A stretch of 32,404 nt of DNA from Deltaproteobacteria bacterium (GCA_016929815.1 JAFGIC010000061.1:1-32404); one strand, 5' to 3'. Positions 1 to 18,510 are shown, counted from the first letter of the stretch. The notes: generated by a model from the letters alone, not told the origin. Numbers and translations are program-made.

Positions 1-249
1 CAAAAGCGCGATAATAAATGTTTTTTTCAAGATCATACCCGTCCTTTTTAAAAAGCTTATGTCCATTGAATTTATGCGTTTACGGCCGTTTATGGTGTGA
101 AAGTAGCATTGATATATTAAGGAATCGCAAGGAGTTTATTAGATAAATATTAAAAAACAGGAGGAATAACTACACGATATAAGTCGTTTCTTTATCCTTG
201 ATATGAATACAAGGCACTGCCTAATCTCAAAACCATATTCATCGGCTTC

Positions 250-981
250 TCAATCGGCAAGCCGGTATCCCGCATGACGCACCGTCTCGATGTAATGTTT
301 TCCATCGCCCAGCTTCCTTCTTAAACCATAGACATGCACGTCAATTGATCTTTCCGTAACGGAATCGTCCAGGTCATGGATCGATTCCCTTATATGTTTT
401 CTTGAAAACACCCAACCCGGTTTTTTTGCCAGGAGCTCAAGAATCCTGAATTCAGCCTGTGTGAGCCCTACATCTTTTCCTCTTACGGTTACCCTGCGCT
501 TGCCTGAAAATATCTCCATGTCGCGTATCCTTATAACGTCGGAGGTTGTATGCGTGGGCCTGAAACGGTTTCGTTCTCCCAAAACCGCCCTTATCCTTGA
601 TATCAAAACCCTTATACTGAATGGCTTGGTGACATAATCACACGCCCCGAGCTCCAGTCCGAGGACAATATCCGTTTCTTCAGCCCGGGCAGAAAGATAT
701 ATGACAGGCACATCCATGGTAGGCTGATTGCGTTGCAGATATTTCAATACCTCCAATCCGCTGATCCCCGGCAGCATTATATCCAGGAGGATAAGATCGG
801 GAATTTCTCTGGTCGCTATTTCTATGGCCTCCTCGCCCGAAGTTGCGCAGATAACACGGAACCCTTCGCTCGCCAGATGATACTCCAGAAGCTGCAGGAC
901 ATCAGGCTCATCGTCCACTGCAAGTATGCATTTCTCTGTAATTTTAACCGGCAATCCTTTTTCTTTCTTTTCCTTGTTCAT
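250..981 (-). CDS. OmpR/PhoB-family two-component response regulator (receiver + winged-helix DNA-binding domain)
   Basis: Receiver motifs ILAVDDEPDV and DLILLDIMLPGISG. C-terminal Trans_reg_C-like LTQAEFRILELL...RSIDVHVYGLRRKL...GYRL. The first codon of track ORF 250..1017 (1015-1017) is TTG. The first ATG is at 981 (MNKEKKEK...) behind GAGAAAGAG, so I trimmed the start. No histidine kinase lies in the window. Confidence 0.9.
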   Translation of the reverse strand: MNKEKKEKGLPVKITEKCILAVDDEPDVLQLLEYHLASEGFRVICATSGEEAIEIATREIPDLILLDIMLPGISGLEVLKYLQRNQPTMDVPVIYLSARAEETDIVLGLELGACDYVTKPFSIRVLISRIRAVLGERNRFRPTHTTSDVIRIRDMEIFSGKRRVTVRGKDVGLTQAEFRILELLAKKPGWVFSRKHIRESIHDLDDSVTERSIDVHVYGLRRKLGDGKHYIETVRHAGYRLAD

Positions 982-1042
982 CTCTTTCTCAGCCGAAAGA
1001 TCGCAGGAATTCGGCAATCGCTAAAGGCATTTAAAACTTCCT

Positions 1043-1744
1043 CTATTGCGTTTGCCTCTGCTCCTCTATCTTTTCAATATATTCCTTAATATATTTCTCA
1101 AGCTCGACCCTCTTAGCCTGGACAAATGGCTCCTTTTCCATCAGCGATGCCAGGAGGCCTTTATTCTCATAGCTTGCCAGCAATTCCTCCGCTATAACGC
1201 ATAGCTCCGCATTATGTGTTCTTGATATATCAAGTTCCCTTAAAACAGTGTCGAGATCAAGCTGAAGATCCTGTTTTTCAATGTCAAGCTTGTTCATCCT
1301 CTTTTCAAGTTCTGCCGTTTCCGAGAGGCTCTTGTCCTGTGCCTCTTTTATTTCTCTATTCATTGTCTCCACTCTTTCCGTAAGCTCATTTACCTCGTCC
1401 TCAAGCAGTGCTATAATCTCATCCTTTTCAAATAAACCCTTCTCAATGTCCTTTTTGTCTTCCAGGACGCTGTCCTTTTCAATCTCCAGATTTCTGGTCT
1501 CTTCCATGGCCTTGGATACTGCCCCTTCCAGAGATGATTTCACGCGTGTCAGCTGGGTTGAAAGTGCATTCTTCTCCTGATATTTTTTATAGATCTGTTC
1601 TTTTTTCCTGTTCAAATCATCAATCATATCCTGTCCCAGACGAATCTCAGTTTTTAATTTAAAGGTTCCGTACAAAAGAAACCCGGAAAGCCCGTATCCG
1701 CAAAGAACCAGAACGATAATGATTATTGATTTAAACCTGGACAT
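1043..1744 (-). CDS. Membrane-anchored coiled-coil protein (N-terminal TM helix, ~200 aa heptad-rich E/K/L region), function unknown
   Basis: The track ORF starts with TTG at 1771. The ATG at 1744 gives MSRFKSIIIIVLVLCGYGLSGFLLYGTF (TM helix), with GAGG ~10 nt upstream and only 4 nt after the porin stop. The rest is charged and helical (EIEKDSVLEDKKDIEKGLFEKDEIIALLEDEVNELTERVETMNREIKEAQ). I recognised no family. Confidence 0.7.
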   Translation of the reverse strand: MSRFKSIIIIVLVLCGYGLSGFLLYGTFKLKTEIRLGQDMIDDLNRKKEQIYKKYQEKNALSTQLTRVKSSLEGAVSKAMEETRNLEIEKDSVLEDKKDIEKGLFEKDEIIALLEDEVNELTERVETMNREIKEAQDKSLSETAELEKRMNKLDIEKQDLQLDLDTVLRELDISRTHNAELCVIAEELLASYENKGLLASLMEKEPFVQAKRVELEKYIKEYIEKIEEQRQTQ

Positions 1745-1748
1745 TGGA

Positions 1749-3476
1749 TTAAAACCTCGCGTTAAGATCAAACATAAATGTATCTACTGCCAATGGAACG
1801 CCCAGTATCTCATTGGCGCTCATCCATCGTCCCGCGAGCCAGAAACGTTCCGAAAGACCGTACTGCCCTCCCAAGATCCATCCCTTTGTGTTTGTCCCGC
1901 CCAGCCAGAAATCCGAGTCCGTAAAGGCGTCCAATACGGAATCCGCCCCGAGACGCCTGTAAAACAGCGAGGCGTTCCATTCACCGAAGCCCCTGGGTGT
2001 GGGATATCCCACGGTCAACCCTGCCTGATAACCTGTTGTCTCCTCCGGATATTCACTGTAACCCATCCTTGCCGAGACCTCTTCCCGGTCAAAACCTATG
2101 TTTTTCACATAATCTCCCGTCAAGATAATATGAAAGGGGAACCAGCGCGCGTAGTCCAGCTCCGCCGTCAGATTCATGAGTTTATATTCCGCTGCAAGCG
2201 CCCATGTCTCATTGGATGAATCGGTATTGATATCAAAAAGGGAGTTCCCCACCTGCCGGAATAAAGGTTCAGTTTCGTTGGTATAGGTCCCACTGGGATC
2301 ATCAAAAAATTCCCCGCTTGTACCCTCAAAATTATAATAGGCCGCTGCTACCCTGGCGCTTAGACCAAGCGGTTTCTCGTAATTCATCCCCAGCTGCCAC
2401 CCGAAAAGCCACTTATCCTCCTGGAACAGTTCCAGTTCCTGGACAGGAAAGGCCCCCGCAATAACAAACCATTTTAAGGGGTGTTCCAGCAGCGTATCGG
2501 TTTCTATTGTCAGGGCCATGCCCTCAAAATTGACATCACTATCCCATACAAGGTCTGTTGAAAACCACGGACTCGCGAACCTTCCGGCAACGGCCGTGAC
2601 CCTGGGTATAAGGCCCCATTTGGGATAAGTCGGCTTGTATGTCCATTTAAGATACGCCCTGTCCAGGGTAACCGTGTCTTTATTAAGGTAATCGCCCATG
2701 GTATCGTTCGTAGAGATCGGGTCGCCGGTGTTTCCCGACGCGAGGCGGGCGCCTGCCTTTATCTCGCCCGCGTTTATCTCCGTGCCTTTATTCATGACAT
2801 CCGCCTCTACCGTAAGACGTATCCTGTAGCGGTATCTTGATCGATCGACCGTGGTGTTGACTATCTCATTGGCGTCAGGGTCATAGAGCAAATCATAATT
2901 ATCCTCATCATAAAAATCCTTCTGGTACCTTGCCCTGATATCTCCTCCCCATTCAATGCGTCCGGCCCAAGCTGAGTTTAATAGCTGCTCGTTTATATCA
3001 TCAGATAGCTGCCTCTCAACCTTGGTCACCCTGTCATCCAACAGACTCGATTTGGTCCTCAGCTCTTCTGTGATAAAATCCAGGTCTTCCCTATTCCTGG
3101 ATACATCTTCCTTTAATTCTTTGTCGGCATTCTCCGTAAGCCTTCTGAAATACTCCTCCTCATCCTGCTCCGGGATAATCCTTACGGCATCTCCCTCAGC
3201 TTCCCCGGAAAGGTCGCCGCTCCTATATCTTTCCATAAATGTTGCTGCCTCTTTTTCATTTATAACGCCCTTTGCAAGCAGCAGGCCGACCAGCGCCTCA
3301 ATGGTATCCACAGCCTCAGCAGGCGCATTGGCTTCACTCTCGGCCTTGATATGTGTTTCCGCAGTATCAACAGGCATCTCAGTTATATTAGGCTCTTCAC
3401 ATAGGCCATGTACGCTTAAAAGATTAATGAAAAACACAAAAGATATGCCCGCAACCATGTTGATAAACCTGTTCAT
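1749..3476 (-). CDS. Outer-membrane beta-barrel, putative-porin type, with long helical N-terminal periplasmic extension
   Basis: ATG at 3476 with GGAGAA 7 nt upstream. Signal peptide MNRFINMVAGISFVFFINLLSVHG. Residues ~90-165 are coiled-coil-like. Alternating beta-strand pattern runs from WGGDIRARYQ onward. The motif AGRFASPWFSTDLVWDSDVNFEG resembles the Pfam 'putative porin' family as I recall it. The C-terminal residue is Phe (DLNARF), typical of OMPs. Confidence 0.75.
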   Translation of the reverse strand: MNRFINMVAGISFVFFINLLSVHGLCEEPNITEMPVDTAETHIKAESEANAPAEAVDTIEALVGLLLAKGVINEKEAATFMERYRSGDLSGEAEGDAVRIIPEQDEEEYFRRLTENADKELKEDVSRNREDLDFITEELRTKSSLLDDRVTKVERQLSDDINEQLLNSAWAGRIEWGGDIRARYQKDFYDEDNYDLLYDPDANEIVNTTVDRSRYRYRIRLTVEADVMNKGTEINAGEIKAGARLASGNTGDPISTNDTMGDYLNKDTVTLDRAYLKWTYKPTYPKWGLIPRVTAVAGRFASPWFSTDLVWDSDVNFEGMALTIETDTLLEHPLKWFVIAGAFPVQELELFQEDKWLFGWQLGMNYEKPLGLSARVAAAYYNFEGTSGEFFDDPSGTYTNETEPLFRQVGNSLFDINTDSSNETWALAAEYKLMNLTAELDYARWFPFHIILTGDYVKNIGFDREEVSARMGYSEYPEETTGYQAGLTVGYPTPRGFGEWNASLFYRRLGADSVLDAFTDSDFWLGGTNTKGWILGGQYGLSERFWLAGRWMSANEILGVPLAVDTFMFDLNARF

Positions 3477-3570
3477 TAAATTTCTCCGAGTAATTAAGTT
3501 GGCATCACGAACAAACGTTCGCGTTCAATATCCGATAAAGCATGTAACTCTACATATGGCAATTACATCA

Positions 3571-4302
3571 CTATCCCTTTGATGAGACCCTGATCTTTAT
3601 GGACTTCGGCATACCCTCCGGCGGAACCTCATCGATCTGTATCTGCTTCATGGCGGCCTGGATCGCATTGTCCATTTTATTACTGCCTGAAGAGCCAAGT
3701 ATATCGAAGTCCGTTATCCATCCCTCATTATCAAGGACTATCTTAAGCGTAGCGTTAAGATTCCCTTCCGGTATGCCGCCGTCCTTTTCAAGCTCCCTGT
3801 TCAGACGCTCCATGATCTCCTTCTGGATCTTCTGTATATACCAGGCGTATCTCTTTAAAAGAGAACTGCTGCCGCTGCCGCCCGAATCTCCAAGAATTAT
3901 AGATCTCCCACCTTTCTTTCCTACAAGCCCGAATCCGTCCGATCCGGACGTCCCATCCGCGTCAATGCCCAGCTCTTCCCCAGCGGGCGTATCATCCGTA
4001 TTCTCGCTCATATCCTCCTGCGGTGAAGCTTCCTGGATGATCTCCTGTATCTCCTCCTCAATCGCAGGCTCAGGCGGTATCTCCTCCACCTTTTCAGGCT
4101 CGGGCGGCTTCTGTTCAACCACCTTTATCATCTGGATCTGCCGCACCTTCCTTGTCTCATCAACGGTTATGAGTTTTTTAACGACAACAAACCCTAAAAA
4201 GATCAGGATGACGGGAACCAGTCCGGAAATGACCCATGCCGCCGGATGGATCTTTTTTTTCCTTTTCTTTGTCTCACCCTTCAAGGCTGTCCCCCCTCTC
4301 AT
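3571..4302 (-). CDS. tonB: TonB-like energy transducer (N-terminal TM anchor, Pro/Glu-rich spacer, C-terminal TonB/TolA-like domain)
   Basis: The ATG overlaps the exbD stop (ATGA at 4299-4302). TM helix AAWVISGLVPVILIFLGFVVV. Spacer KPPEPEKVEEIPPEPAIEEE. C-terminal ~90 aa has a beta-alpha-beta pattern (ATLKIVLDNEGWITDFDILGSSGSNKMDNAIQAAM...). Position immediately after exbB-exbD. Confidence 0.75.
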   Translation of the reverse strand: MRGGTALKGETKKRKKKIHPAAWVISGLVPVILIFLGFVVVKKLITVDETRKVRQIQMIKVVEQKPPEPEKVEEIPPEPAIEEEIQEIIQEASPQEDMSENTDDTPAGEELGIDADGTSGSDGFGLVGKKGGRSIILGDSGGSGSSSLLKRYAWYIQKIQKEIMERLNRELEKDGGIPEGNLNATLKIVLDNEGWITDFDILGSSGSNKMDNAIQAAMKQIQIDEVPPEGMPKSIKIRVSSKG

Positions 4303-4715
4303 TTTACAATCCTCTGTGTTACCAGACCCAGTTGGCTGATCTCCAGCCTCTGCAGCAGGTCAAGTATATCAATGACGCTCTGATAATAAATCTTTTCATC
4401 CCCCTTTATGACCACGGGCAGGTTTGGGTCCGCGGCCTTGTATTGCCGCAGAAGGTTCTCCAGTTCCTGCATGGTCACGGGATAGGCATCCAGGTATATC
4501 TGCCCGCCCGAGTTAACGGTAATCGCCTTTGTCTTGGGCCTTGTAAGACTCGGGGCGGCGCTTGCCTTTGGAAGATTCACCTTGATCCCCTGGATGGCCG
4601 CGGTAACGGAGATAACGAAAACGACCAGCAGTGTCCATGCCAGGTCCAGCAGGGGGGTGACGTTTATCTCATCCAGGAGCTTGTTGTCCGATCCTGACGT
4701 CCTTCTTCTCCTCAT
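4299..4715 (-). CDS. exbD: ExbD/TolR-family biopolymer transport protein
   Basis: EINVTPLLDLAWTLLVVFVI matches the ExbD N-terminal signature (INVTPFIDVMLVLL in E. coli), including the TM Asp. The periplasmic domain has ITVNSGGQIYLD...VVIKGDEKIYYQSVIDILD. The ATG overlaps the exbB stop (ATGA at 4712-4715). Confidence 0.9.
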   Translation of the reverse strand: MRRRRTSGSDNKLLDEINVTPLLDLAWTLLVVFVISVTAAIQGIKVNLPKASAAPSLTRPKTKAITVNSGGQIYLDAYPVTMQELENLLRQYKAADPNLPVVIKGDEKIYYQSVIDILDLLQRLEISQLGLVTQRIVK

Positions 4716-6523
4716 TTCTCCTGCTCCTCATACTGTTCAAACATCGTTGTGAGTTCATCCATAAACAGATCCATCTCGCCTGTGGCCTTCCTGACCTTGA
4801 CGGCCAGATAGTTGTATCCGAACAGGGCAGGTATTGCCACGATCAGGCCGAAGACCGTTGTTGCCAGGGCCGAGGACACGCCGGGTGCAATGGCCGTGAT
4901 ACTCGCCTCCCCCGCCTCGGCCAGCGACGCGAAGGTATTCATGACGCCCCACACCGTACCCAACAGACCGAGAAACGGTCCTCCTGTTATGGCCATGGTA
5001 AGGAGCACCATCCAGGAATTGAGCGCCCTTGCCTCCTCCGCGTAGGACCTCTCCAGCGCGTTTTTGACCTTCTCAAGGGCTTTTTTAGATATCTTTACAC
5101 CGGCCTTCTCAGCATCACCGGAGATTTCCTCAATCGAGTCACCGTGCGCCATGGTATTGAATTCACGCCATCCTGCCGCGTATATCCTGTACAGGACCGA
5201 AGAAGGATAATCCGTGTCTTCATCTTCCTCTCGCGGAACAGGCCTTGAGTCTCTGAAAGATCCCATGAAGGCCCTGTCGTCTTTCTCTATATACCACAGG
5301 TTGAACGACTTTCCGATCATGACTATCCAGCTCATGACGGCAAAGATGATCAGGATCCCTATAATGATAAGCCCGTCAAGGGATATGTTTTTTGCGATGG
5401 TTGCGAAATAGAATGTTGGAAGTCCACCGCCCTCATAGATCTCCTCCTCTACAAATCCGCACATAAGGCTGTCCGGCGCCTGGCTTGCGTACAAGGCCCT
5501 GATCCATGCGTCCGACCTTACAAGATTTGATATATTTATTTCATCAATGTCGCCGGAAAAGCATGCCTCGCCTTTTACATCGGAGCCTATTGAGATGTCG
5601 GTCACATTCTCAAAGCTGAAGGAATCGATATCCGTCCATGTTATTTTCAGACTGTCAAGGAATATGGTTATTCTCTGTTTAGTGGCCGCCGTGAAGGCAA
5701 AATGTCGCCATTTATCTGTGGAGACGTCTGCGGTCTTCTCCAATGAATTTATTATATTGTCGCCTTCCTTTAACAGGACATATATCTTGCTCTCATCGAC
5801 CCTGACCTCCAGTGTCCGGCCCTCGCTATTCATCGCAAACAGACAGGAGTCGTCCTGTGGCATCAGGAGTTTTACCCAAAGAGAAAAGGTTATTCCGTCC
5901 TTGAAGCTCAGGGAAGGGGATGATGGAATCATGATCCTGTCGCCCGCGCCGTTCAGGCTCACCCCATTTCCCACAACTGATGGCAGTCCTTGCGTCCCCA
6001 TGAATGATCCGGCGTTATTTTTATAGGCGGTCGAATCCTCGGGAAGATTTTCCATCTCGCTAAAATGATAAACCGCTACCTGGTTGACATCATAGGTGCC
6101 TGCCGCGTCCTGCCCACCCATGGCGTTCTTGTTCCCGTAATACATCCTTATATAATCCTGATCCGAGCCCGCGAGTATCATGGGCACATTTACCCATACA
6201 AGGCCGATCTCGTCGATGCTGTCATAGTATTCTATATGATGTTTCAGGTCGGTCTCGTCATCCCCCTTGATAAACCTTATGTCCGAACCGTCATCCAGGG
6301 CCTTCGTAAAATCGAAATTGCCTGAATGCAGTCTTAGAAGGACAGGTGCTCCAACCAAATTCTCGGCTATATCCGAGCCTGTCTTCGTCGTATCGAAAGC
6401 GACCTTTTTCCGATATCCCCATTGATTATTCCACCAACTACTTTCTTCCGCGAACCCTGTCTCAACAAAAAAGAATCCCGCCGCCACAAATAAAAATATC
6501 AATGCCCTCAAAAAGTATTTCAC
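4712..6523 (-). CDS. exbB: MotA/TolQ/ExbB-family proton-channel protein with N-terminal periplasmic DUF2341 + LamG (concanavalin-like lectin fold) extension
   Basis: GTG start at 6523 with GAGGA 8 nt upstream. Signal-like N-terminus. DUF2341-like WGYRKKVAFD...DIRFIKGDDETDLKHHIEYYDSIDEIGLVWVNVP...IRMYYGN (~6118-6436). LamG-like VYHFSE...GNGVSLNGAGDRIMIP...ITFSLWVKL (~5488-6073). C-terminal three-TM ExbB core GGPFLGLLGTVWGVMNTF and IAPGVSSALATTVFGLIVAIPALFGYNYL (~4715-5401). Confidence 0.85.
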   Translation of the reverse strand: MKYFLRALIFLFVAAGFFFVETGFAEESSWWNNQWGYRKKVAFDTTKTGSDIAENLVGAPVLLRLHSGNFDFTKALDDGSDIRFIKGDDETDLKHHIEYYDSIDEIGLVWVNVPMILAGSDQDYIRMYYGNKNAMGGQDAAGTYDVNQVAVYHFSEMENLPEDSTAYKNNAGSFMGTQGLPSVVGNGVSLNGAGDRIMIPSSPSLSFKDGITFSLWVKLLMPQDDSCLFAMNSEGRTLEVRVDESKIYVLLKEGDNIINSLEKTADVSTDKWRHFAFTAATKQRITIFLDSLKITWTDIDSFSFENVTDISIGSDVKGEACFSGDIDEINISNLVRSDAWIRALYASQAPDSLMCGFVEEEIYEGGGLPTFYFATIAKNISLDGLIIIGILIIFAVMSWIVMIGKSFNLWYIEKDDRAFMGSFRDSRPVPREEDEDTDYPSSVLYRIYAAGWREFNTMAHGDSIEEISGDAEKAGVKISKKALEKVKNALERSYAEEARALNSWMVLLTMAITGGPFLGLLGTVWGVMNTFASLAEAGEASITAIAPGVSSALATTVFGLIVAIPALFGYNYLAVKVRKATGEMDLFMDELTTMFEQYEEQEK

Positions 6524-6584
6524 CTCATTAATCCTCGCTTTCCGAAATTCAAGTCCTCTTTATTCCATCACCGCGCTTTGTTTC

Positions 6585-6605
6585 GTTAGTCGTTAGGGGT
6601 TAGTC
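6585..6605. repeat. Tandem heptamer array, 3 units (GTTAGTC GTTAGGG GTTAGTC)
   Basis: Read directly in the tpsA-exbB spacer. Confidence 0.8.
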
Positions 6606-6736
6606 GCAAGGCCTTTCTATCACTTCTCCTTTAACCTCGTACCTTCCTGACTCAAGCAACCTCAGTAACCTCTACCCCTTTAAATTTACGGTAGTGACAG
6701 CGAAGCGTATTTAACCTGGGCAACAAATCCAACTGC

Positions 6737-6771
6737 CTCCGACATCCGTCATCTGCCATCCGTCATCCGTC
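6737..6771. repeat. Tandem heptamer array, 5 units (CTCCGAC ATCCGTC ATCTGCC ATCCGTC ATCCGTC)
   Basis: Read directly. Ends 2 nt from the tpsA stop codon (6774-6776). Confidence 0.9.
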
Positions 6772-6773
6772 CT

Positions 6774-9700
6774 CTATTCTCCCTCTTCTTCATAAAATCC
6801 CAGGACCTCTACATTAAGCCATTTGGTTATAAAATCAGCCAATGCCTTCATTGCCTCTTCCATGGAATCCTCCCGCGACCCGGTTATGGTCGATGTAGCC
6901 TCTTCCACCATGCTGGTGGTATCGGTTATACTGCTTATTCCTGCAACCACTCCCAGATTTACCGAAGCCGTGGAAACAGGCATGCCCACGGATCCCTGTG
7001 AAAAACTTATATTCTGCGCGTTCACAATATCCACCGCACCAAGGATAACGTTTGTGCCTGAAATGCCGGCTTCTCCGGCGTCTATCTCGCCTTCAGGTGC
7101 GAAGAGATAGACGTCTCCGGGAAGGGGCTCTTCCTTGGGTCCCTCAAGACCGTCCGGATCAAAGGTCAGGGTCCTGATTCCGCTTCCCACTGCGGGGGCC
7201 TCCCATTCAATAAACCATTTCCCGGTTTTCTCATCATAAACGGCATGGGACTCTGTTGCATTCACGCTTGCCTTTGAACCTCTTCCTGCATTTATGTTTC
7301 CCTTATCAGTCCAAACCGTTACATCCCCGCCGGCAAATGTCATCACCCTGGATTCGTTTACGTTTAGGTCTTCGACGGAGAATATGTTTATATCGCCTCC
7401 TGCGGTCGTATAGATGCCCGAATCGCTCTCCACACTTCCTGAATCGGTAAAGGTACTCTTTCCGACATTTATCTCTCCCAGGGCCGCGATATAGATACTT
7501 CCTGCTCCTCCTGTTATGTTGATCTGCGATTCAACCATGTCAATGTCGCCTGTCCCTGTACCGACATCTTTAAACAGGTTATACACGGCCTCTCTTCGGA
7601 GATTTTCCACAACGGCCTCCGCGCCTTCAATATCTCCTTCCGCCAAAAATTCACTGTATATCTCTCCTTGATCCCTGATTCTTCCGAAAAACTCATTGAG
7701 CTCATCAAGCGTTATATCCAGATCAACCCCCGAAAGTACGACCAGGTCATTTTCTTCGGGATCGAGATATACATTGTATTGGTTGCCGACCAGTTGGATT
7801 CCATCTGTAGTGCCGAGGTCGATGCTGTCACCTGCGATAACCATAAGCAGGCCCGGTCCCCCCTTTTCGATGCCGGTATAAAGCAGATCACCCGACAAAC
7901 TGGAGGAAAATGATATGTCCCGACCTGCCTTGATATAGGAGATATCATCTAAACCGGTATTTTGACCGTTATAATATATATCCAGTATGTCTCTTTCCGC
8001 AGTGATCTCCGTCTTCTTTGGCAGATAAAAGGCGATATCCTTGATATCCTGGCCCGCATCTATGATAACCGCTTTGTCATCGTCTCTGTGGGAAACGCCT
8101 TCGCCATGTTCATATCGAGTCAGTGAATTTATGACCGCCTCCACCTCGCTTGTGGTAGAGGTCTTATCTCCATAAACTTCATCGGCATTGAGATCTGACA
8201 TATATATGTTTCCCCTTTTCTCTTTACCGTTTTCAATATACTCCCCGCTGATGTCCCTTCCTGCTCTTAAATAAAGCTGTCCCTCGGATGAAGGCGCCAG
8301 GACAAAGCTGTCATTAAACAGGATATCCCGACCTGAGATTATCGACAAAGAGGCAGGCAGCATCTTCTGTTTCAATTTCTGGTTAATATTGCCGTAAAAT
8401 ATGGCATCTCCTGTTAACGAAACATCTCCGAATATTGCATTAAGATTCATCTCCGTATCCTCGGTATAGGACAGGTTCCAGGACGAATCGGAAGTAAAGC
8501 TGTCGCTCGCGAGGGTGGGATTAACTATAGACCCCAGTAATATCTTTCCGCCTGTTGTCAAGGAGACATTTGCATCGAGGAGTTCAATCTGCTGCCCCTC
8601 CATTCCGGTCTTTGTGCCGAAATCTCCCGCTGCATATAGTTCGCCCATACCGTCTGCAACAACAAATCTTCCGTTAATGTCGCCTCCTGAGTAGACATTG
8701 AGATTCCCTTCGGCGAAGTTTCCTATCCCGGCAGTAATATCACCTCCGGCCTTTATGTAAATATCCCCGCCCGACATGGCAACAATACCCTGGGACACGT
8801 CAAGGCCGTTATTTCCTGCGAAAGAGGCGCTCCAGTCCTTCCACACCTCCTGGGTCTCCGGATCATAGGCCATATAGACTTGATCCCATCCGTCATTTAT
8901 TGATGGCGACCCCAGGAGATTCCCCTTAAAATTAAGATTTATATCTCCCCCTGCCTCATAGTACCAGTAGGATATCAACGCTTCGGATGTTGCGGCGCCC
9001 AGGGATCTTATTGTTCCAAGATAGCCGCTCTTTCTTTTTAACTGGATATCGCCGTCTACTTCCAGGTCTATATCCCCAAGGGAGGATTGGATAGCGCCGC
9101 CGTTTATTATCAGCGATCCGCCAACATCTCCGGATATTGAACCATCATATGTACTCAGGTTATAGCCTATGCCGCTGTATGAAATCAGGGTATTTAAGTT
9201 CACCTTGTCGATCATTGTGTCTCCGGCTGATGAGAATCCTATATCCCCCCTTTCCGTATAAACAAGGACACCTGAGTTGATAGTCAGGTCTCCATTATCT
9301 ATTTCTGTAAAGGCGCCCAGGGGATTGGCGGCTGTGAGATCCGACCCGGCTGAAAGGTCTATGTTCCATCCTGTTGCTCCGGTATCTTGATACAGATAAT
9401 GTTTGTTTGTTGGCGCATCGGTGATATCCCCGTTAATAATGAGATCTCCGGCAGCCCTGAGGTACAAAAATCCTGCCGTCTCACCAGTCCCGTCTACATC
9501 CGCATCATAGTGCCAGTCCGTCAAACTCCATGCATTTTTTACTGTAAGGTCTCCTATACTTGTTATCTCCAGTCCAGGGACGAAATTAAGGTCAGTGCCG
9601 TCGCTGATCTCCAGGCCGCCGAATATCTCGGACTTTAATGTCGAGGCATCCTCCATGTAAGCCTCCGTTTCCGTCTTCCATTGGCTGATTTCATTATCTA

Positions 9701-12700
9701 TGACTCCATCATGGTCGTCTTCGTCATAGACCTTTACCGCTAATGCCGTAACCTCATCTGCACCTGATATGGAACCGTTCAGGGTCATATTCAATGCTGA
9801 ATCGGTTTTAAAGGATCTGAAGACTACTGATCCATCTTCTGCGCCGCCCGCATCTATTGCCGCATCACCCTGAAAGACAATTCCTCCCTCCCCGCTCAAG
9901 GTTATATCCGCTCCTGATGAACTGCCTGTAATACTGCTGCCCGAATAAAGGGTCAGGCTGCCTCCGGCGTAAAGGGCTATATCCGAGCCATCTTTGGCCC
10001 CGGACGAATCAATAGCACCGTAGATATCGATGTCTCCCTGTCCATCGCTTTCATCCGCGGAGATTTTTACTTCTGAGGCCGTCAATGTGTCTTCCGAGGC
10101 AAGGACGATATTTGCCTCCCTCGCCCTGAGCTCAACTGCTTCGTTAAAACCTCCGTCGGTAAGGATGTCTATAAGGCTGCTGAGATCGGCTATAGCGGCG
10201 GTATCAATGGAGAATGATCCGCCTATTCCATTCTCTTCCGATTGACCGTAAAGATTGCCCTCCATAACGGCTGAATAAGTTGGAGAGACTATCTCTATCT
10301 CTCCGGCGTCTCCCTGTCCGCCTGCCGATACATCGATTCTGGCGCCGTTGCCGATACTTACAATGCCGTCTTCCGCAACAAGCTCGACCGATCCCCCCGG
10401 GGCAAAATCATTGCCTGCAGCGTAGATAATCGCTCCGTCTTCCAGAAATATCCCTGAATCGCTCCCGCTGCCTGATGTGGTCATGGCTATATCGGCGCCG
10501 TTCATATTCAGAACACCTGTCTGGATTATGTCTTCCGCGGTTATTTCAAAATTTCCGCCTGCTATGATTGCCTCAGAGTAGCCTCCTCCGTTCGATGCTA
10601 TGGTTACTGCTCCTGTTCCTGTGTCTATGCTGTAATTTATGGCATCATATCCCTCGGATGTCTCAAGCAGAGATGACGCAACCGAGGCTGCCTCGATGCT
10701 TAAATCCGCTGACCCTGTAATAAAAGCGCCAGTCCCCTGTATTGTTACATCCCCTGAACTGTAAAGATGTATCCCGGAAAATCCGTCAAATGTTATCGTC
10801 CCTTCGCTCAGATATATCTCGTCCGCCTCTACTCTGAGGGCACCCGGGCTGCTGGAAACCGTCTCTTCCGATTCATTTCCGGAGTTTGTGAATACCACGC
10901 TACCGGATGAAATGTTTATAACCGAATCATCGGTATCAATCAGAGATGCGTTCAGAACAAGCTCAGAACCGACGTTAAGATCAAAGGAGTCTTTAAAGAA
11001 TATTTCGGAGCCCTCACCAAGTTCCATTACTTCAGAGGATGCCAGATATGTCCACAACCCTTGAGTTATATAAGCTCCGGTTCCGGTCCTGTCCGAATCG
11101 TTATCCGAGATAAAATATATCGTATCGCTCGTAATGCTGATAGAGCTGTTGTCCACCTGCAGTTGGCCTTGGATATCAAACAGATTGGCATTCAACTCAA
11201 TATTGTCGGAGGCGTGTATCATGGCCGTATCTTCTATGCGCAGTGACCCCTCAGGCGCGTTGAATACTATCCTGCCATCAAGACTGTCGGTATCCGTATT
11301 GCTTTCGCTGCCTTCAGAAAGGGCTGCTATGAGCACGTTGTCATTTATTGTTATTAAATCCCCGGCATTAAGCTCAATGCCTTTAACATTGAGACTTACG
11401 CCGTCTTCAAAGGTAAGTTTAGACGTAGATTCTTTATCTCCCAGGATTATAGACTCCAGCCCCATACCCGACACGGTTTCATCAGATAAGACGAGCTTAT
11501 CGATCATTTCCCCTGCTATCTGCTCATGGATTTCCCCCGTGGGGTCGAAATTATCCGGTAGCACCCAATCATTGCCGCCTGCCGTTATAATTATATCAGT
11601 GCCGCTGACCTTTAGAGCGGCCCCGCTGTATGTATCATCCAAGGCCTCTCCGAATATGGCTCCTTCTAAAATCGTGGTATTGCCTGTCATTGTAACGCTG
11701 CCGGCGTCACCTGCGGTCATTTCGCTTATTTCATAATATCCCTCGCTGAGTACATCCTCAGCGTCCCTGATTGAGTAGTAATGGGTCTCGACACTCGATG
11801 TAAGATCCGTTCCTGCCGTGGCGGTCATTCCCGATATTACGCTATAACCCTCCTCTGTCATGGGATACTCCGAAAGATTCACCCCTGTACCGATATCCGT
11901 CAGTATTACGGCGCCATCCACAAAGGCGTATTCATCGCTCAGGAGGTAATATTCACCTGCAGGTATCTCCTCATTCTCCCCAATTATTATTGTCTTCCCC
12001 GGGCTATAGACAGAGTTTTCCGGGAGAATCACATATTGGTCATCTTTTCCCAGAGGGTCTTCAGTACCGTCCGTACCGGACAGGAACCGATAGGCGAACA
12101 CGGTTCCTCCGCCTGACACGTCTATCTCCGCGCCCTCAGCCATTACAACGTTTTCTCCTTCAACAGTAACCGATCCGACGGGCGCGGATAAAACTTCGCT
12201 GTCGGTATCGATTGTCCCGTTTTTGTCGGGCATCCCCCAAAATAACGCCTCATCGTCTATGAGCCCGTAGTTGATATATGCGTCCATATATGTACTAAGG
12301 GTGCTTTCATCCCCGAGATACACAATTCCGTCTTCGGACAGGGCAATCAGTGTGACATCGCCCAAAGGGGCGTATATATCGCCATACAGGTAGATATTGG
12401 CCGCCTCAAGACTAAGGTTTGATCCTGCCGAATAAATGCTTCCTGTCAGATTGTCTCCATTGTCCAAGATTGTCAGGTCGCCTTCTGTCTTTATCGTGAA
12501 TGATGTTAATGAATCCGGGTATATCCTGTCTGCCTGGAGAACCAGATCCCCTGTCTGCTCCAATCCTCCCCAACGGGTATTCTGATATGATTCATTATAG
12601 TAATAATCGCTCAGGCGTATGTCCGTTGTGGATATCAGTTCAGCTGATTCAAAGGAAGAAAGGGTGATATATCCGCTTATATCGATGAACCCCCCTTCCA

Positions 12701-15700
12701 GGGTCAGGGAGGCATCTCCTTTTACCAACTCTTTGACTTCTTTGTTATAATCATAGGTGTTGGCAAGGGTGATCCAGGGGGACGTAATTGAAATATCACT
12801 GTCCGAGGCTGATGAAACGACAGGGGCGTCGATGGTAATGTCCCTTGGGACATCTATATCCATTGAGCCAGTAAAAAAGATCTCGCTCCAGCTTTCAAGG
12901 GTTATGGAATCGAAGCCCATTGAGAGATATGAAGAAATCTCCTCTCCGCTCATGTCCATGGGATTGATGTCATTCTCCTTAGCTATAACAAGTGCTCCTC
13001 CGTTTAGGCTTTCCATTTCAGCACCGGCCTTTAACTGCCCTTCCATTACCAGGTCTCCGAAAAATGACAGAGTAACGCTTCCCGGAGCACTTGCGGTTTG
13101 CACCGTTACAATATCACCATCCTCTGACCACACATAGTCATTGACGGCATCTGAGCCCGACACATCTATCACTGCTCCTTCCTCAATAATAAGACCGCCT
13201 TTGCCTGCTTTCAGGGTCACATTGCCGCCATCCACCGCAGAAAATCCAAGGGGAAGGTCCTTAGCCAGAGGTTCAGTATCCCTTTTTATATAGCCCGCTG
13301 CCGACAAAAAGCCGCCCGGATGTATCGTTATTCCCTGCGCATCCGCATCAATGCTGCCGCCGGGGGCGGAAAGCGTGCCTGAGAATTCTATATTCCTTCC
13401 TTCCAAATTTATGCCTCCGCCTGCGCCTACGTTTACTTCTGCTCCCGACTTTATCTCCACAGTTCCTGACACATCTTCTTGTGCAGGCATAACATAACCG
13501 TCAAATTCTTCATCGGCCAAGAGTCTTATTGAGGAATCACCCAGGTAATCGTCTGTTACACTCGTAAGCTTGGAATAGGATCCATATCGAAGACCGACTG
13601 AACCATAATCTTCAATACTGCCGGTCCTGTCCGAGGCAGTAAATTTTATATAGGATGGTGTAAGCACGGCGCCTGATGATATCGTAATCCCATCAAAGGC
13701 CTTTAATGTAATATCGGTGAAGCCTGTATTATCAAAAAAATCATCATCCAGGATAAGGGTGTTCCTGATCTCATCGGGGATGGTGTAATCCGCTCCTATA
13801 AGAGATCTCACAGTAAACATGTCATCCGGAAGAACATACACGTTTCCGGCGTGCACGCTTATCGAACCGCCGTTCATTCCCTGGGTTGAATATCCCATAA
13901 GGTCTCCCTCAAAGATAATCGTCACACCCTGAACGTGAACAGATCCGGCGTCTCCGCCTGATACCTCGCCATCCTCATCAATCTCGTGTCCCCCGCTCAC
14001 GTCAATGGAGGAACCGGCATCTGCGATAACTCCTTCCCCATTTAGAGTCTCATCCGATATTAAAATTGTTCCGCCTTCCAAGAGACCTGTTTCATAATCG
14101 ACATCCAAGCCCTTCCCGTATTCCGAGTTGTCTATCTGTTCACCCGCAACTGAAAGGCTGCTGCCGGAGGCGAGGAATATTCTTTCGTGTCCGAGATCTT
14201 TCTGGCTTACATAATCATCTCCTTCGTCAGTTGTAATGTTGCTGTTCAACGTAAGGTCTATTAGGCCCCCTGGTACGGTTATATCGCCCTCAATAACTAT
14301 GCTTCTGGCTCGGGCAAAAAAAGATCCTCCGGCCAGGAGCGATATCGAGGCGTCTTCCTCTATGGTAAGGCCGGTTCTGCTGTAAAGTCTTAATGTACCA
14401 AGCCCGGCATCGTTGATCAGGCTTGATGAGATATGAGTAATGCCTTCCCTGTCTTCGGGAAATGGCTCCAGGGCATTAAAATTCTCCGGCAATTGATCAA
14501 CCGATGAATCGACCACAACCTCCTGAACAACGTGATCAAGGTCGCTATAGATGGGAGCTACTGATAATACGTCTCCTATCTCGAGGGTCCCGCCGGCAGG
14601 AACGGAGATCCCCATGGCATCATAGATTTCTTCTTCATCCTCATGCGGATAATAAATCTGAAAATCTCCTTGTGTAACAGAGGCGTCTATTGTCCCCTCA
14701 AGGACCATTCCGGACGCTATAAGGGAGATTTTTCCAGCATCATTTCCCTCCTGAAAACCGTTAATATAACTCTTAATCGGTGCAACTCCGCCATAGTATA
14801 TTCCGCTGTAGGTTTCTTTTACACCATACCGATCATGTATCTTGGCAAAATCACCCAGTATGCCTTTATATGTCTCCCACTCTTCCGCTTTGTCTATGTC
14901 ATAAACCACGTTATTAACCGAGAGAAGTTTGGTAGTGTCTATCGATCCCCCTGAATAGTTGACACCACCGCCTGAAGCATCAAGATAACCTCCTTCCCTT
15001 ATTATGATATCCCCCGAGCCGGCGTTTAAATAGATTGTGCCTCCCTCGGTAGCCATCTCCTCCGCGGTAAGGTCCCCCCTGGATATGATATAATTGCTCA
15101 CGTCTCCTATCGAAGAGCCGAGAAGCGAAGATATGGTTATCGTCTCTCCTAAAAGCAAACCGTCCTTCTGCCCGTAATCGTCGGCCAGCTCAACACTGTT
15201 AAGCTGGACATTTACAATCTTTTCGCTCACAGGCATTGTAACCCAAAGCCCGCTCACATCGATTGCGCTGTCCTCTCCCAGGTATATACGTCCCCCGGCC
15301 TCAATATCTACATTACCTGAAGAAGCCAGAACAGTGCCGTAAAGTTCAACAAGATCAGGTGTCAATTTGTTATCATCTGCAGCCGATTCTTCATCATCGC
15401 CAAGGCCGGAATAAAGGCTGCCCACTAAGACCTCTCCTCCGTGAAAAATAAACGTGTTGTTGAATTCCTCTGATGAACTGCTGACCGGCGTCGAGGTAAC
15501 GCTGTCTTCGCCCAGGGTCACCTTTTCGCTTGCAAGAAGCTCAACCCTTCCGTTATTTGTCACGGCAGTAACCGACCGTATAATACCGTTCTGGGTAACG
15601 GTCCTGCCGTACATTCCAGCCTGACCGAGATCGGCCGACAGGGCGCCGTCCTCATAGTTGTAGACATCTCCTGGATTTTCTGCGATATAGATCCTTTTAT

Positions 15701-16439
15701 ATATCTGATCATTAAGTTCTATCTCTTTAAGCCTGATCTCCTCACCTGCGGCAAGGGCCGCCCACCCAAGATCGGCGGAAATCTCTCCGTTGTTTTCCAC
15801 CGTTGTGCCCAGCAAAAAGACGGAGCCGCCGTCAGCAGCAGTGATTGTCCCGTGATTTGACACCACTCCGTTCTCGTTAAGTTCCTCAGCTGGGTTTATA
15901 TAGTTCTCCCTTGCGAAACTCAAAGTGCCATCGAGAAAATCATCGTCTGCCATGTTGAGGGAAGAGGCCACAAGAGACCCAACATTGACGGTGGAATTGG
16001 GAGAAAAGAATATGCCGTTCTGATTTATCAGGTAGACCTGGCCGTCCGAAGTTAATCTTCCGTATATAAGGCTCGGGCTCTGATCATATATTCTGTTCAA
16101 TGCCTTCCAGGAGGTGTTTTCCTGCTGGTCGAAATGCACCCATGCATTTGCACCTATGTTGAACGAGTCCCAGTCGATGATGGCGCTACTCTCATCCTGA
16201 TGCACGACCAGCCCGTTGTATGATGATTTTTCAAGGGATGAGACCCCCTGTACAATCCCTTTAAGGGCAGGAATGGCGTTTACCGACGGCGCTGTTATAT
16301 CTGAGGATGTGGAGCCGTAGAACCCGGGAATCAATGCCGCGCCGAAGACCGAGGATGTCTGGGCAATAAAGAATGACGTCACCGTAATGACTGTAAATAG
16401 TCTTTTGTGTGATTTTATTAATTTTATCAAACGCAGCAT
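6774..16439 (-). CDS. Giant (3221 aa) two-partner-secretion exoprotein (TpsA, filamentous-haemagglutinin family)
   Basis: ATG at 16439 with AGGAAAG upstream. Signal peptide ...FFIAQTSSVFGA. TPS-domain motifs IIDWDSFNIGANAWVHF and SLIYGRL..GQVYLINQNGIFF (~15450-16300). The remainder is G/S/D/I-rich and beta-helix-like. The C-terminal ...GDVYLFAPEGEIDAGEAGISGTNVILGAVDIVNAQNISF... is, as I recall, the signature of the FHA-associated DUF3739-type domain (unverified). I found no Cys in the translation. Confidence 0.93.
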   Translation of the reverse strand: MLRLIKLIKSHKRLFTVITVTSFFIAQTSSVFGAALIPGFYGSTSSDITAPSVNAIPALKGIVQGVSSLEKSSYNGLVVHQDESSAIIDWDSFNIGANAWVHFDQQENTSWKALNRIYDQSPSLIYGRLTSDGQVYLINQNGIFFSPNSTVNVGSLVASSLNMADDDFLDGTLSFARENYINPAEELNENGVVSNHGTITAADGGSVFLLGTTVENNGEISADLGWAALAAGEEIRLKEIELNDQIYKRIYIAENPGDVYNYEDGALSADLGQAGMYGRTVTQNGIIRSVTAVTNNGRVELLASEKVTLGEDSVTSTPVSSSSEEFNNTFIFHGGEVLVGSLYSGLGDDEESAADDNKLTPDLVELYGTVLASSGNVDIEAGGRIYLGEDSAIDVSGLWVTMPVSEKIVNVQLNSVELADDYGQKDGLLLGETITISSLLGSSIGDVSNYIISRGDLTAEEMATEGGTIYLNAGSGDIIIREGGYLDASGGGVNYSGGSIDTTKLLSVNNVVYDIDKAEEWETYKGILGDFAKIHDRYGVKETYSGIYYGGVAPIKSYINGFQEGNDAGKISLIASGMVLEGTIDASVTQGDFQIYYPHEDEEEIYDAMGISVPAGGTLEIGDVLSVAPIYSDLDHVVQEVVVDSSVDQLPENFNALEPFPEDREGITHISSSLINDAGLGTLRLYSRTGLTIEEDASISLLAGGSFFARARSIVIEGDITVPGGLIDLTLNSNITTDEGDDYVSQKDLGHERIFLASGSSLSVAGEQIDNSEYGKGLDVDYETGLLEGGTILISDETLNGEGVIADAGSSIDVSGGHEIDEDGEVSGGDAGSVHVQGVTIIFEGDLMGYSTQGMNGGSISVHAGNVYVLPDDMFTVRSLIGADYTIPDEIRNTLILDDDFFDNTGFTDITLKAFDGITISSGAVLTPSYIKFTASDRTGSIEDYGSVGLRYGSYSKLTSVTDDYLGDSSIRLLADEEFDGYVMPAQEDVSGTVEIKSGAEVNVGAGGGINLEGRNIEFSGTLSAPGGSIDADAQGITIHPGGFLSAAGYIKRDTEPLAKDLPLGFSAVDGGNVTLKAGKGGLIIEEGAVIDVSGSDAVNDYVWSEDGDIVTVQTASAPGSVTLSFFGDLVMEGQLKAGAEMESLNGGALVIAKENDINPMDMSGEEISSYLSMGFDSITLESWSEIFFTGSMDIDVPRDITIDAPVVSSASDSDISITSPWITLANTYDYNKEVKELVKGDASLTLEGGFIDISGYITLSSFESAELISTTDIRLSDYYYNESYQNTRWGGLEQTGDLVLQADRIYPDSLTSFTIKTEGDLTILDNGDNLTGSIYSAGSNLSLEAANIYLYGDIYAPLGDVTLIALSEDGIVYLGDESTLSTYMDAYINYGLIDDEALFWGMPDKNGTIDTDSEVLSAPVGSVTVEGENVVMAEGAEIDVSGGGTVFAYRFLSGTDGTEDPLGKDDQYVILPENSVYSPGKTIIIGENEEIPAGEYYLLSDEYAFVDGAVILTDIGTGVNLSEYPMTEEGYSVISGMTATAGTDLTSSVETHYYSIRDAEDVLSEGYYEISEMTAGDAGSVTMTGNTTILEGAIFGEALDDTYSGAALKVSGTDIIITAGGNDWVLPDNFDPTGEIHEQIAGEMIDKLVLSDETVSGMGLESIILGDKESTSKLTFEDGVSLNVKGIELNAGDLITINDNVLIAALSEGSESNTDTDSLDGRIVFNAPEGSLRIEDTAMIHASDNIELNANLFDIQGQLQVDNSSISITSDTIYFISDNDSDRTGTGAYITQGLWTYLASSEVMELGEGSEIFFKDSFDLNVGSELVLNASLIDTDDSVINISSGSVVFTNSGNESEETVSSSPGALRVEADEIYLSEGTITFDGFSGIHLYSSGDVTIQGTGAFITGSADLSIEAASVASSLLETSEGYDAINYSIDTGTGAVTIASNGGGYSEAIIAGGNFEITAEDIIQTGVLNMNGADIAMTTSGSGSDSGIFLEDGAIIYAAGNDFAPGGSVELVAEDGIVSIGNGARIDVSAGGQGDAGEIEIVSPTYSAVMEGNLYGQSEENGIGGSFSIDTAAIADLSSLIDILTDGGFNEAVELRAREANIVLASEDTLTASEVKISADESDGQGDIDIYGAIDSSGAKDGSDIALYAGGSLTLYSGSSITGSSSGADITLSGEGGIVFQGDAAIDAGGAEDGSVVFRSFKTDSALNMTLNGSISGADEVTALAVKVYDEDDHDGVIDNEISQWKTETEAYMEDASTLKSEIFGGLEISDGTDLNFVPGLEITSIGDLTVKNAWSLTDWHYDADVDGTGETAGFLYLRAAGDLIINGDITDAPTNKHYLYQDTGATGWNIDLSAGSDLTAANPLGAFTEIDNGDLTINSGVLVYTERGDIGFSSAGDTMIDKVNLNTLISYSGIGYNLSTYDGSISGDVGGSLIINGGAIQSSLGDIDLEVDGDIQLKRKSGYLGTIRSLGAATSEALISYWYYEAGGDINLNFKGNLLGSPSINDGWDQVYMAYDPETQEVWKDWSASFAGNNGLDVSQGIVAMSGGDIYIKAGGDITAGIGNFAEGNLNVYSGGDINGRFVVADGMGELYAAGDFGTKTGMEGQQIELLDANVSLTTGGKILLGSIVNPTLASDSFTSDSSWNLSYTEDTEMNLNAIFGDVSLTGDAIFYGNINQKLKQKMLPASLSIISGRDILFNDSFVLAPSSEGQLYLRAGRDISGEYIENGKEKRGNIYMSDLNADEVYGDKTSTTSEVEAVINSLTRYEHGEGVSHRDDDKAVIIDAGQDIKDIAFYLPKKTEITAERDILDIYYNGQNTGLDDISYIKAGRDISFSSSLSGDLLYTGIEKGGPGLLMVIAGDSIDLGTTDGIQLVGNQYNVYLDPEENDLVVLSGVDLDITLDELNEFFGRIRDQGEIYSEFLAEGDIEGAEAVVENLRREAVYNLFKDVGTGTGDIDMVESQINITGGAGSIYIAALGEINVGKSTFTDSGSVESDSGIYTTAGGDINIFSVEDLNVNESRVMTFAGGDVTVWTDKGNINAGRGSKASVNATESHAVYDEKTGKWFIEWEAPAVGSGIRTLTFDPDGLEGPKEEPLPGDVYLFAPEGEIDAGEAGISGTNVILGAVDIVNAQNISFSQGSVGMPVSTASVNLGVVAGISSITDTTSMVEEATSTITGSREDSMEEAMKALADFITKWLNVEVLGFYEEEGE

Positions 16440-16542
16440 GTTTTAATCTTTCCTGCTTGTTAAAATATTGATTTCACCACAGAGACGCCAGCCTTCGCTG
16501 AAGCTACGGCACGGCAGGCTGAGAACACAGAGTTGAGTTAAT

Positions 16543-16579
16543 TTTTCATTTGCCCCGAGAAAGTCGGGACAAATGAAAA
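16543..16579. other. Strong hairpin (16-bp stem, 1 mismatch, 5-nt loop) in the tpsB-tpsA spacer
   Basis: ttttcatttgccccga gaaag tcgggacaaatgaaaa. No flanking U-tract on either strand. Confidence 0.8.
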
Positions 16580-16697
16580 GGACTCATCCTGCCTGCGGCA
16601 GTAGTAAAGACCATTTCTCGTGTACAATCTGAATATACATGTAAATTTTGCCGATATTTTAATTGCGCCTTCGCCGTGATATAAAAACATAAAGTCT

Positions 16698-16777: not shown

Positions 16778-16813
16778 TGATTTATTCTTTCTATGTGTCT
16801 GATCTCCGTCTCT

Positions 16814-18499: not shown

Positions 18500-18510
18500 G
18501 TAAATCCTGT

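Follow-up and report, generated by a model that had tools for sequence, protein, structure and literature searches.

In rotary models of the Ton and Tol systems, a pentamer of A subunits (TolQ or ExbB) turns around a wall-anchored dimer of B subunits (TolR or ExbD). Two-partner secretion (TPS) is taught as a self-sufficient, two-protein pathway, with no energy input at the outer membrane. The gene cluster described here contains components of both. It lies on the minus strand of a 32,404-nucleotide stretch of DNA from a Deltaproteobacteria bacterium (GCA_016929815.1, JAFGIC010000061.1; the whole stretch is referred to below as the window), and includes a gene (4712-6523) for a 603-residue channel protein of the TolQ/ExbB type, an A subunit that features a large N-terminal head. 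Known systems that combine, like this cluster, a Ton/Tol-type energy source with a large surface protein include HxuA-HxuB-HxuC of Haemophilus influenzae, which relies on the housekeeping Ton motor and on a plugged TonB-dependent receptor of the classical kind and has no headed A subunit, and the Agl-Glt gliding machinery of Myxococcus, which has neither a TPS pair nor a headed A subunit. We propose, with a probability of roughly 0.6, that the window cluster encodes a dedicated, proton-driven, trans-envelope Ton/Tol-like apparatus tied to two-partner secretion, in which the head would be a periplasmic docking module.

Among the classical motors, the channel part is best matched, in both sequence (phmmer E 4e-20) and structure, by TolQ of the Escherichia coli TolQ-TolR-TolA system (PDB IDs: 8odt, 9ddm, 9kpz). 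The two motors share three transmembrane (TM) helices, a Thr pair, a TM Asp in the partner subunit and a third protein with a TonB_2/TolA-like C-terminus; in contrast to the headed protein, TolQ has no periplasmic head and has Glu173 in the position of Ser551, and a Pfam search of the window found no TolB, Pal or CpoB genes. With E. coli ExbB-ExbD-TonB (PDB IDs: 5sv0, 6tyi) the window has in common the PF01618 channel family, the operon logic and a Pro/Glu-rich spacer in the TonB protein. Unlike that system, it has no receptor neighbour and no His in the TM segment of the TonB-like protein, and its channel protein is headed and lacks the Glu. ExbB/TolQ-like A subunits with other N-terminal appendages, such as DUF3450, follow the same grafting principle; the phylogenomic study of MotAB relatives that catalogues them names DUF2341 explicitly among the N-terminal appendages carried by non-flagellar A subunits and calls it uncharacterised (PMC12505986). 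That study gives no function or genomic context for the appended A subunits and does not comment on their TM3 Glu. In our literature search on LamG- or DUF2341-headed ExbB proteins it was the only mention, in passing, and no function assigned to the head was found.

The closest described gene cluster is that of Pseudomonas aeruginosa (Llamas et al. 2009, PMC2729926; Otero-Asman et al. 2020, PMC7035377). It consists of the TPS genes pdtA (PA0690, the TpsA) and pdtB (PA0692, the TpsB), with phdA between them, the motor genes exbB2 (PA0693), exbD2 (PA0694) and tonB4 (PA0695), a putative porin gene (PA0696), PA0697, the YbjN family gene PA0698 and PA0699, which encodes a PpiC-type peptidyl-prolyl isomerase (PPIase). 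The genes PA0690-PA0699 are co-induced by the sigma factor VreI and by phosphate starvation, with involvement of PhoB, and homologues of the TPS, exbBD and PA0696 genes travel together in Pseudomonas, Burkholderia, Rhodopseudomonas and Janthinobacterium (PMC2729926, PMC7035377). The cluster has been called "still uncharacterized" (PMC7035377).

The window holds all seven corresponding genes, for TpsA, TpsB, a headed ExbB, ExbD, a TonB-like protein, a Porin_5 protein and a helical protein, and, going by the published descriptions and the orthologous locus of Burkholderia cepacia, the cluster matches pdtA-pdtB-exbB2-exbD2-tonB4-PA0696-PA0697 in gene order and content. In B. cepacia (locus L081), the genes for TpsB, a DUF2341-LamG-MotA_ExbB fusion, ExbD, a TonB_2 protein, Porin_5, a 232-residue protein, YbjN, a 161-residue protein and a Rotamase match the published PA0690-PA0699 list gene for gene, from TpsB through the PpiC-type gene; upstream of them there is a type II secretion gene as well as a pair encoding an extracytoplasmic function (ECF) sigma factor and FecR. 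PA0693 and PA0696 were compared through the published 20-nucleotide primers rather than through whole sequences. The reverse complement of the PA0693 primer (PMC7035377, supplement) encodes (D)IRFVAA, the invariant DUF2341 motif, and the primer matches the Burkholderia paludis fusion gene with no mismatches, at codon 71; that of the PA0696 primer encodes NLIRLL, a conserved N-terminal motif of Porin_5. The clusters differ in their setting: that of P. aeruginosa belongs to the VreAIR/PhoB regulon and lies beside the Hxc type II secretion genes, whereas the window has neither, and no VreAIR genes were found in it.

The architecture of the headed channel protein is well defined by Pfam profiles. 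A signal-peptide-like segment (residues 1-25, ending ...GFA before EE; 6449-6523) is followed by a DUF2341 domain (PF10102, residues 78-165, 6029-6292; E 1e-16, 61.6 bits against a cut-off of 23.4), whose DIRF motif includes two invariant residues, D81 and R83, by a Laminin_G_3 domain of the ConA-like lectin fold (PF13385, residues 192-341, 5501-5950; E 1.1e-15, 58.6 bits against 27.6), and by the MotA/TolQ/ExbB channel core with TM2 and TM3 (PF01618, residues 472-585, 4769-5110; E 3.3e-29, 101.7 bits against 22.9). DUF2341 and Laminin_G_3 both stand N-terminal to TM1, and in this order also in 87 homologues. Behind the hydrophobic segment with its GFA end comes a WWxxxWxxR motif that is near-invariant in relatives; the family consensus at the predicted cleavage site is AxA followed by WWN, and cleavage is predicted to occur after GFA. 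Since the signal-like segment precedes the WWxxxWxxR motif, the exported part before TM1 comprises about 350 residues. The GTG start codon is the earliest candidate downstream of the preceding stop codon, and a Shine-Dalgarno sequence, GAGGA, ends 8 nt 5' of it; a TTG four codons downstream may be an alternative start. The earlier note on this DNA, which was silent on the strand (minus), had thus read the GTG start, the succession of signal peptide, DUF2341, LamG and three-TM channel, and the periplasmic placement of the head correctly.

The AlphaFold2 model of the protein, built on an alignment of 87 sequences, has a mean predicted local distance difference test score (pLDDT) of 90.3. In it, residues 37-362 form an all-beta head, which a short linker of low confidence joins to a part with the TolQ/ExbB fold, three long TM helices with a cytoplasmic helical domain. 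The helical C-terminal part superposes on the solved TolQ structures of E. coli and Acinetobacter baumannii with target-normalised TM-scores of 0.84-0.86 (Foldseek). The channel part scores below the cut-offs of both NCBIfam equivalogs, at 140.5 bits for tolQ (cut-off 221) and 84.9 bits for exbB (cut-off 206.2), and by these sequence profiles is nearer to TolQ than to ExbB. For the head, Foldseek returned generic ConA-like/LamG jelly-roll matches only, among them clostridial neurotoxin binding domains and a trans-sialidase lectin domain, and a sequence search of the PDB found no solved relative, with one marginal match at E 0.005. Other large proteins (P0088-P0091) carry the DUF2341+LamG module with no channel attached.

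The headed channel protein belongs to a large family. A protein search yielded 87 clusters with the same three-domain architecture and 30-61% identity to it, including proteins of Desulfosarcina alkanivorans, Desulfobacterium sp. N47 and Syntrophobacteraceae. With the Burkholderia paludis member as query, at least 3175 clusters (90% identity) were obtained at E <= 1e-20, and when one genome per species was scanned, the DUF2341-LamG-channel fusion was located at 528 or more loci. The analyses of loci described below rest on the best 80 of these. The 80 come from Desulfobacterota, Nitrospirota, NC10, Myxococcota, Verrucomicrobiota and Alpha-, Beta- and Gammaproteobacteria, and include Bradyrhizobium, Burkholderia, Methylovulum and Dyella; no Pseudomonas is among the best 80 of the at least 528. 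One locus, on a 5.7-kb contig binned as Pirellulales (L002, CAZTGH010000360.1), carries a cluster that is 48% identical to that of the window and typical of Desulfobacterota, and is possibly a binning error. The gene is thus a further member of a family that Pfam already covers and that the literature mentions as uncharacterised.

In the window the headed channel gene lies directly downstream of the genes for TpsB, a 561-residue FhaC/ShlB-type Omp85 transporter (16814-18499; Pfam POTRA_2, ShlB and Omp85), and TpsA, a 3221-residue, adhesin-like exoprotein (6774-16439) with an N-terminal TPS domain (E 7.6e-24) and a C-terminal DUF3739 (E 7.6e-31). It is followed on the same strand by the genes for a 138-residue ExbD/TolR-like B subunit with TM Asp24 (4299-4715; Pfam ExbD, E 3.5e-26), a 243-residue TonB/TolA-like transducer (3571-4302; TonB_2, 40 bits against a cut-off of 22), a 575-residue Porin_5 outer-membrane protein (1749-3476; PF16930, E 2.4e-112) and a 242-residue coiled-coil protein with one N-terminal TM segment (1043-1771), the last recognised from its sequence. 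The headed channel gene overlaps the ExbD-like gene by 4 nt, and the ExbD-like gene overlaps the TonB-like gene to the same extent, which suggests translational coupling of the three.

The set is kept in Desulfobacterota, Nitrospirota, Myxococcota, Verrucomicrobiota and Alpha-, Beta- and Gammaproteobacteria. The 80 loci were searched with the window proteins, and those with full flanks (at least 9 kb upstream and at least 6 kb downstream; n=49) were used for counting. ExbD and Porin_5 are each adjacent to the headed channel in 49/49 loci, and TpsA or TpsB in 48/49. A TonB-like gene was found by tblastn in 37 of the 49; the remaining 12 belong to those loci in which 0.7-1.8 kb separates ExbD from Porin_5. 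A homologue of the coiled-coil protein is present in 38 of the 49. The gene order varies: TpsB-TpsA-motor, TpsA-TpsB-motor, and TpsB-motor-porin with TpsA farther on. The same set was found in four contexts annotated with Pfam, namely those of B. cepacia (L081), Desulfosarcina alkanivorans and two metagenomic genomes (L086-L088), and in L086-L088 TpsA again carries the TPS domain and DUF3739. PpiC-type (PpiC/SurA) PPIase genes recur beside the cluster, following it in phyla other than that of the window (21/81 loci).

The synteny backs the link of the headed channel to the neighbouring TpsA that the earlier note had suggested. The note had also raised the prospect of a fusion that is common and always next to ordinary TonB-dependent receptors; it is indeed common, but a receptor neighbour was never seen, and Porin_5 and TPS genes stand there instead. 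No Plug or TonB_dep_Rec gene was found among the 17 minus-strand open reading frames (ORFs) of at least 138 residues in the window (the plus-strand ORFs were left unscanned), nor in the annotated loci L081 and L086-L088. The cluster is accordingly not an ordinary Ton system beside a TonB-dependent receptor.

The second feature that sets this motor apart is its TM3. The motif in the headed channel protein is APGVSSAL (nt 4865-4888), and in HMMER alignments to the solved E. coli TolQ and ExbB, Ser551 (codon 4871-4873) is placed opposite the Glu of APGIAEAL (TolQ Glu173, ExbB Glu176) with no gaps. TM3 contains no Asp or Glu residue at all; given this and the gap-free alignments, the Glu is absent, and not present in a shifted position. 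The loss of the conserved acid had been pointed out from the sequence in the earlier note and stands, but it is not special to this protein. The column is S in 50, A in 37 and E in none of the 87 homologues, and A in 52, S in 23 and G in 5 of the 80 genome loci, the latter count carrying less weight, as S/A was favoured by one of the two patterns used in the scan. When the channel domain alone was used for an exhaustive HMMER search, the residue was S, A or G in 150/150 of the nearest representatives at 50% identity.

Nor is the loss tied to the head. In 35 of the 150 representatives TM1 is preceded by fewer than 60 residues, and these proteins lack the Glu as well; most of them are full-length head-less proteins, and a few may be fragments. 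The genomic contexts of four head-less relatives were inspected. Two of them, in a Haliangiales genome (L082, 8001-12000) and on a metagenomic contig (L083, 6001-10200), lie inside canonical Tol-Pal operons: the genes for MotA_ExbB and ExbD are accompanied by a PD40 TolB, an OmpA-like Pal and a third gene after ExbD, which matches TonB_2 in L082 but not in L083; the other two have different ExbD/TonB contexts. In both Tol-Pal operons the Glu-less relative is the sole gene of the MotA_ExbB family. The TM3 motif, as read from cluster representatives, is APGVAAAL for the TolQ of L082 and APGISGAL for that of L083, and the L083 protein cluster includes a Pontiella sequence. We infer from these head-less relatives that the Glu-less TM3 is ancient in a TolQ-like lineage to which working Tol systems also belong, and is not a defect.

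The remainder of the ion path is intact. The Thr pair, Thr523 and Thr556 (T145 and T178 of TolQ; T148 and T181 of ExbB), is kept in 87/87 and 86/87 homologues, respectively, and Asp24 in the TM segment of the ExbD-like protein in 79/79 orthologues; together with the Gly/Pro framework of TM2 and TM3, these residues are conserved across hundreds of sequences. Since the Thr pair and the ExbD/TolR Asp are invariant, the headed motor is probably active, and the substitution of the Glu is no sign of a dead or exotic channel. Family conservation also points to a candidate substitute acid at the channel mouth: Glu539 (codon 4907-4909), in the periplasmic loop between TM2 and TM3. This position is E in 49 and D in 33 of the 87 homologues (E/D in 82/87), and E/D in 87/92 long-headed representatives as against 14/35 head-less ones. 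It is possible that Glu539 takes over as proton attractor at the periplasmic mouth.

The AlphaFold2 model of the Porin_5 protein (pLDDT 81.7) consists of a signal peptide, two short conserved helices (58-85), a disordered linker, a helix of 62 residues (106-167) and a porin-type barrel. In Foldseek, OmpM1 of Veillonella, an outer-membrane attachment porin, ranks first (E 1e-14; target-normalised TM-score 0.74-0.76), ahead of general porins and DcaP; by sequence, no match was found in the PDB. The protein is modelled as a porin barrel on a periplasmic coiled-coil stalk, rather than as a plugged 22-strand receptor. OmpM1 of Veillonella parvula (PDB ID: 8bym) and Porin_5 are both porin barrels with a long N-terminal periplasmic coiled-coil stalk, but OmpM1 has an SLH domain where Porin_5 has a short conserved helical tip, and their identity is 16%. 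We know of no described function for Porin_5; a role as phosphate porin or as TonB-dependent gate is unsupported, there being no PDB sequence match and the fold being nearest to OmpM1 and then to general porins.

The TonB-like protein has an N-terminal TM segment, a Pro/Glu-rich spacer and the TonB_2 C-terminal domain (tonB_Cterm, 32.2 bits against a cut-off of 27.1). The TonB-like proteins of the cluster lack the conserved TM His of TonB and TolA (SHLS motif) and have no conserved polar TM residue. The C-termini of TpsA proteins are usually variable. Here, the last ~250 residues (window 6774-7700), comprising DUF3739 and a terminal V.V.GFG motif, are kept across 49 loci from several phyla; such conservation is unusual and suggests a system-specific role. 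A literature search on DUF3739 found nothing relevant. The 242-residue coiled-coil protein, the positional counterpart of P. aeruginosa PA0697, matches no Pfam family above cut-off and no PDB entry.

These elements can be arranged into a working model, in which the apparatus would serve two-partner secretion and not general nutrient uptake of the Ton type. By homology the motor would be an A5B2 complex, and its five heads would form a periplasmic crown on the rotating A pentamer. Protons would pass the retained Thr523/Thr556 ring to Asp24 of ExbD, with the loop acid Glu539 possibly replacing the TM3 Glu as attractor. The crown would be a docking or adaptor module through which the motor is linked to a periplasmic partner specific to the system, for which there are three candidates: the tip of the Porin_5 stalk, the DUF3739 C-terminus of TpsA and the coiled-coil protein. 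A protein partner from within the cluster is more likely than a free glycan or peptidoglycan, given the strict co-inheritance of the genes and because fixing a rotating subunit to the wall would stall the motor. A further step, which we put forward only tentatively, is that the crown of five heads transmits proton-driven force to the OmpM-like porin stalk and/or the TpsA C-terminus, and so controls the secretion, tensioning, retraction or release of a surface filament. If true, such a crown-driven machine would amount to energised two-partner secretion, a process now held to be energy-independent at the outer membrane.

Several points weigh against this proposal. The three candidate partners of the head are not distinguished by the present sequence and model evidence, and the A5B2 stoichiometry is assumed from homologues. 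The link to two-partner secretion is not universal: at the NC10 locus L024 no TPS gene lies within 10 kb, although the genes for the motor, Porin_5, the coiled-coil protein and a SurA/PpiC-type PPIase are all there, so the motor/porin module can stand apart from TPS genes, and the Burkholderia loci likewise lack TpsA in the 10 kb around the headed channel gene. In P. aeruginosa, transposon mutants in the tpsA, tpsB and tonB homologues and in PA0696 were unchanged in VreI-induced zebrafish virulence (PMC2729926), and they therefore offer no functional handle on the proposal. Finally, the E173A mutant of E. coli TolQ is non-functional (PMC12583513), so some compensating mechanism must exist in the Glu-less proteins, and the role given above to Glu539 is a guess.

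The alternative that survives best, although we consider it unlikely, is import in the manner of the Hxu system. TpsA would capture a substrate, possibly phosphate-related, the TonB-like protein and the motor would open Porin_5, and in the periplasm the head would bind the incoming substrate, perhaps a glycan or polymer. HxuA/HxuB/HxuC provides a precedent of a TPS pair that works with a TonB-dependent importer (PMC5422565), LamG/ConA-like folds are frequently carbohydrate-binding, and a phosphate connection can be seen in the PhoB- and VreI-mediated induction of the P. aeruginosa cluster by phosphate starvation. In the window, too, the cluster is flanked by genes for a PhoB-family response regulator (250-1017, minus strand) and a weakly PstS-like binding protein (20888-22183, minus strand), and homologues of the latter occur near the cluster in three other loci (L008-L010). 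However, the regulator, at 214 bits, is below the PhoB cut-off of 296, the PstS similarity amounts to 32.9 bits against a cut-off of 206.6, and phosphate-related neighbours are present in a minority of loci only. The barrel of Porin_5, modelled as that of a general porin with a stalk, lacks a plug or any signature of a TonB-dependent receptor, and the recurrent periplasmic PPIases, PpiC-type in the loci counted above and an FKBP-thioredoxin fusion in the window, fit protein export better than import.

The earlier note suggested that the stator itself binds a periplasmic ligand, be it glycan, peptidoglycan or TpsA; a reading in which the head is a peptidoglycan or glycan anchor or sensor that positions or activates the motor in the cell wall, much like the periplasmic domains of MotB or ExbD, draws on the lectin-like fold, on the carbohydrate-binding jelly rolls among the Foldseek matches, and on the occurrence of DUF2341+LamG in proteins without a channel, which implies a portable binding module. 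We regard it as improbable: with the A pentamer turning around a wall-anchored B dimer, an A subunit that is itself held by the wall would be brought to a halt; a protein partner inside the system is favoured by how strictly TPS, Porin_5 and the coiled-coil protein accompany the headed channel; and no sugar-binding site was identified in the head. That the channel is degenerate, conducting no protons without the TM3 Glu and serving only as a membrane scaffold for the head, is very improbable, for although mutations at the corresponding TolQ residue (Glu176 in A. baumannii numbering) cause envelope defects (PMC11970459), the invariance of the Thr pair, the TM2/TM3 Gly/Pro framework and the ExbD Asp indicates selection on the ion path, and Glu-less relatives are the only MotA_ExbB-family genes in canonical Tol-Pal operons.

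The surroundings of the cluster show a number of further features. The fusion of an FKBP-type PPIase with a thioredoxin/DsbD-like domain is encoded directly upstream of TpsB (18511-19866, minus strand). An ORF at 19778-20647 (minus strand) overlaps the 5' end of its gene by 89 nt, and because of this overlap the start of either the fusion or the ORF is probably miscalled. The 250-nt spacer between the TpsA stop codon and the start of the headed channel gene contains two heptamer arrays, which may be a regulatory site or due to chance: about 5 copies of TGACGGA (coding strand) at 6733-6775, starting at the TpsA stop codon, and about 3.4 copies with the consensus TCGTTAG (plus strand) at 6583-6606. 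Promoter and terminator counts over positions 1-19999 were those expected from shuffled sequence, and the window has no Rfam match. Upstream of the cluster there are genes for three proteins with PEP-CTERM/VPLPA-CTERM sorting signals (22230-23036, 23494-24072 and 31068-31769, minus strand), and in Desulfosarcina alkanivorans (L086, 12500-13465) the ExbD gene of the cluster is separated from the TonB-like gene by one for an exosortase EpsH, which may point to a connection with exosortase systems in Desulfobacterota. A 1449-residue Ig-repeat protein (24519-28868, minus strand; He_PIG, Big_9, Rha78A-like Ig and fn3, with a weak ZU5) is probably a surface protein, and a DUF1573 protein is encoded at 30184-30930.

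The architecture of the headed A subunit is common and already catalogued; what is new is its genomic context, the occurrence of the headed motor with TPS and Porin_5 genes. One class of TpsA/TpsB pairs, found at no fewer than 528 loci in many phyla and in carriers that include P. aeruginosa and the Burkholderia cepacia complex, is encoded with a motor, a stalked porin and a coiled-coil protein. This suggests that TPS systems of this class do draw on the proton-motive force, and the headed A subunit is the most obvious handle on such use. In addition, the TM3 Glu, which is essential in E. coli TolQ and ExbB, appears to be dispensable in a large natural lineage, which bears on models of the proton path in 5:2 motors. 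The main interest therefore lies less in the single gene than in the whole family, an unstudied Ton/Tol variant tied to two-partner secretion.

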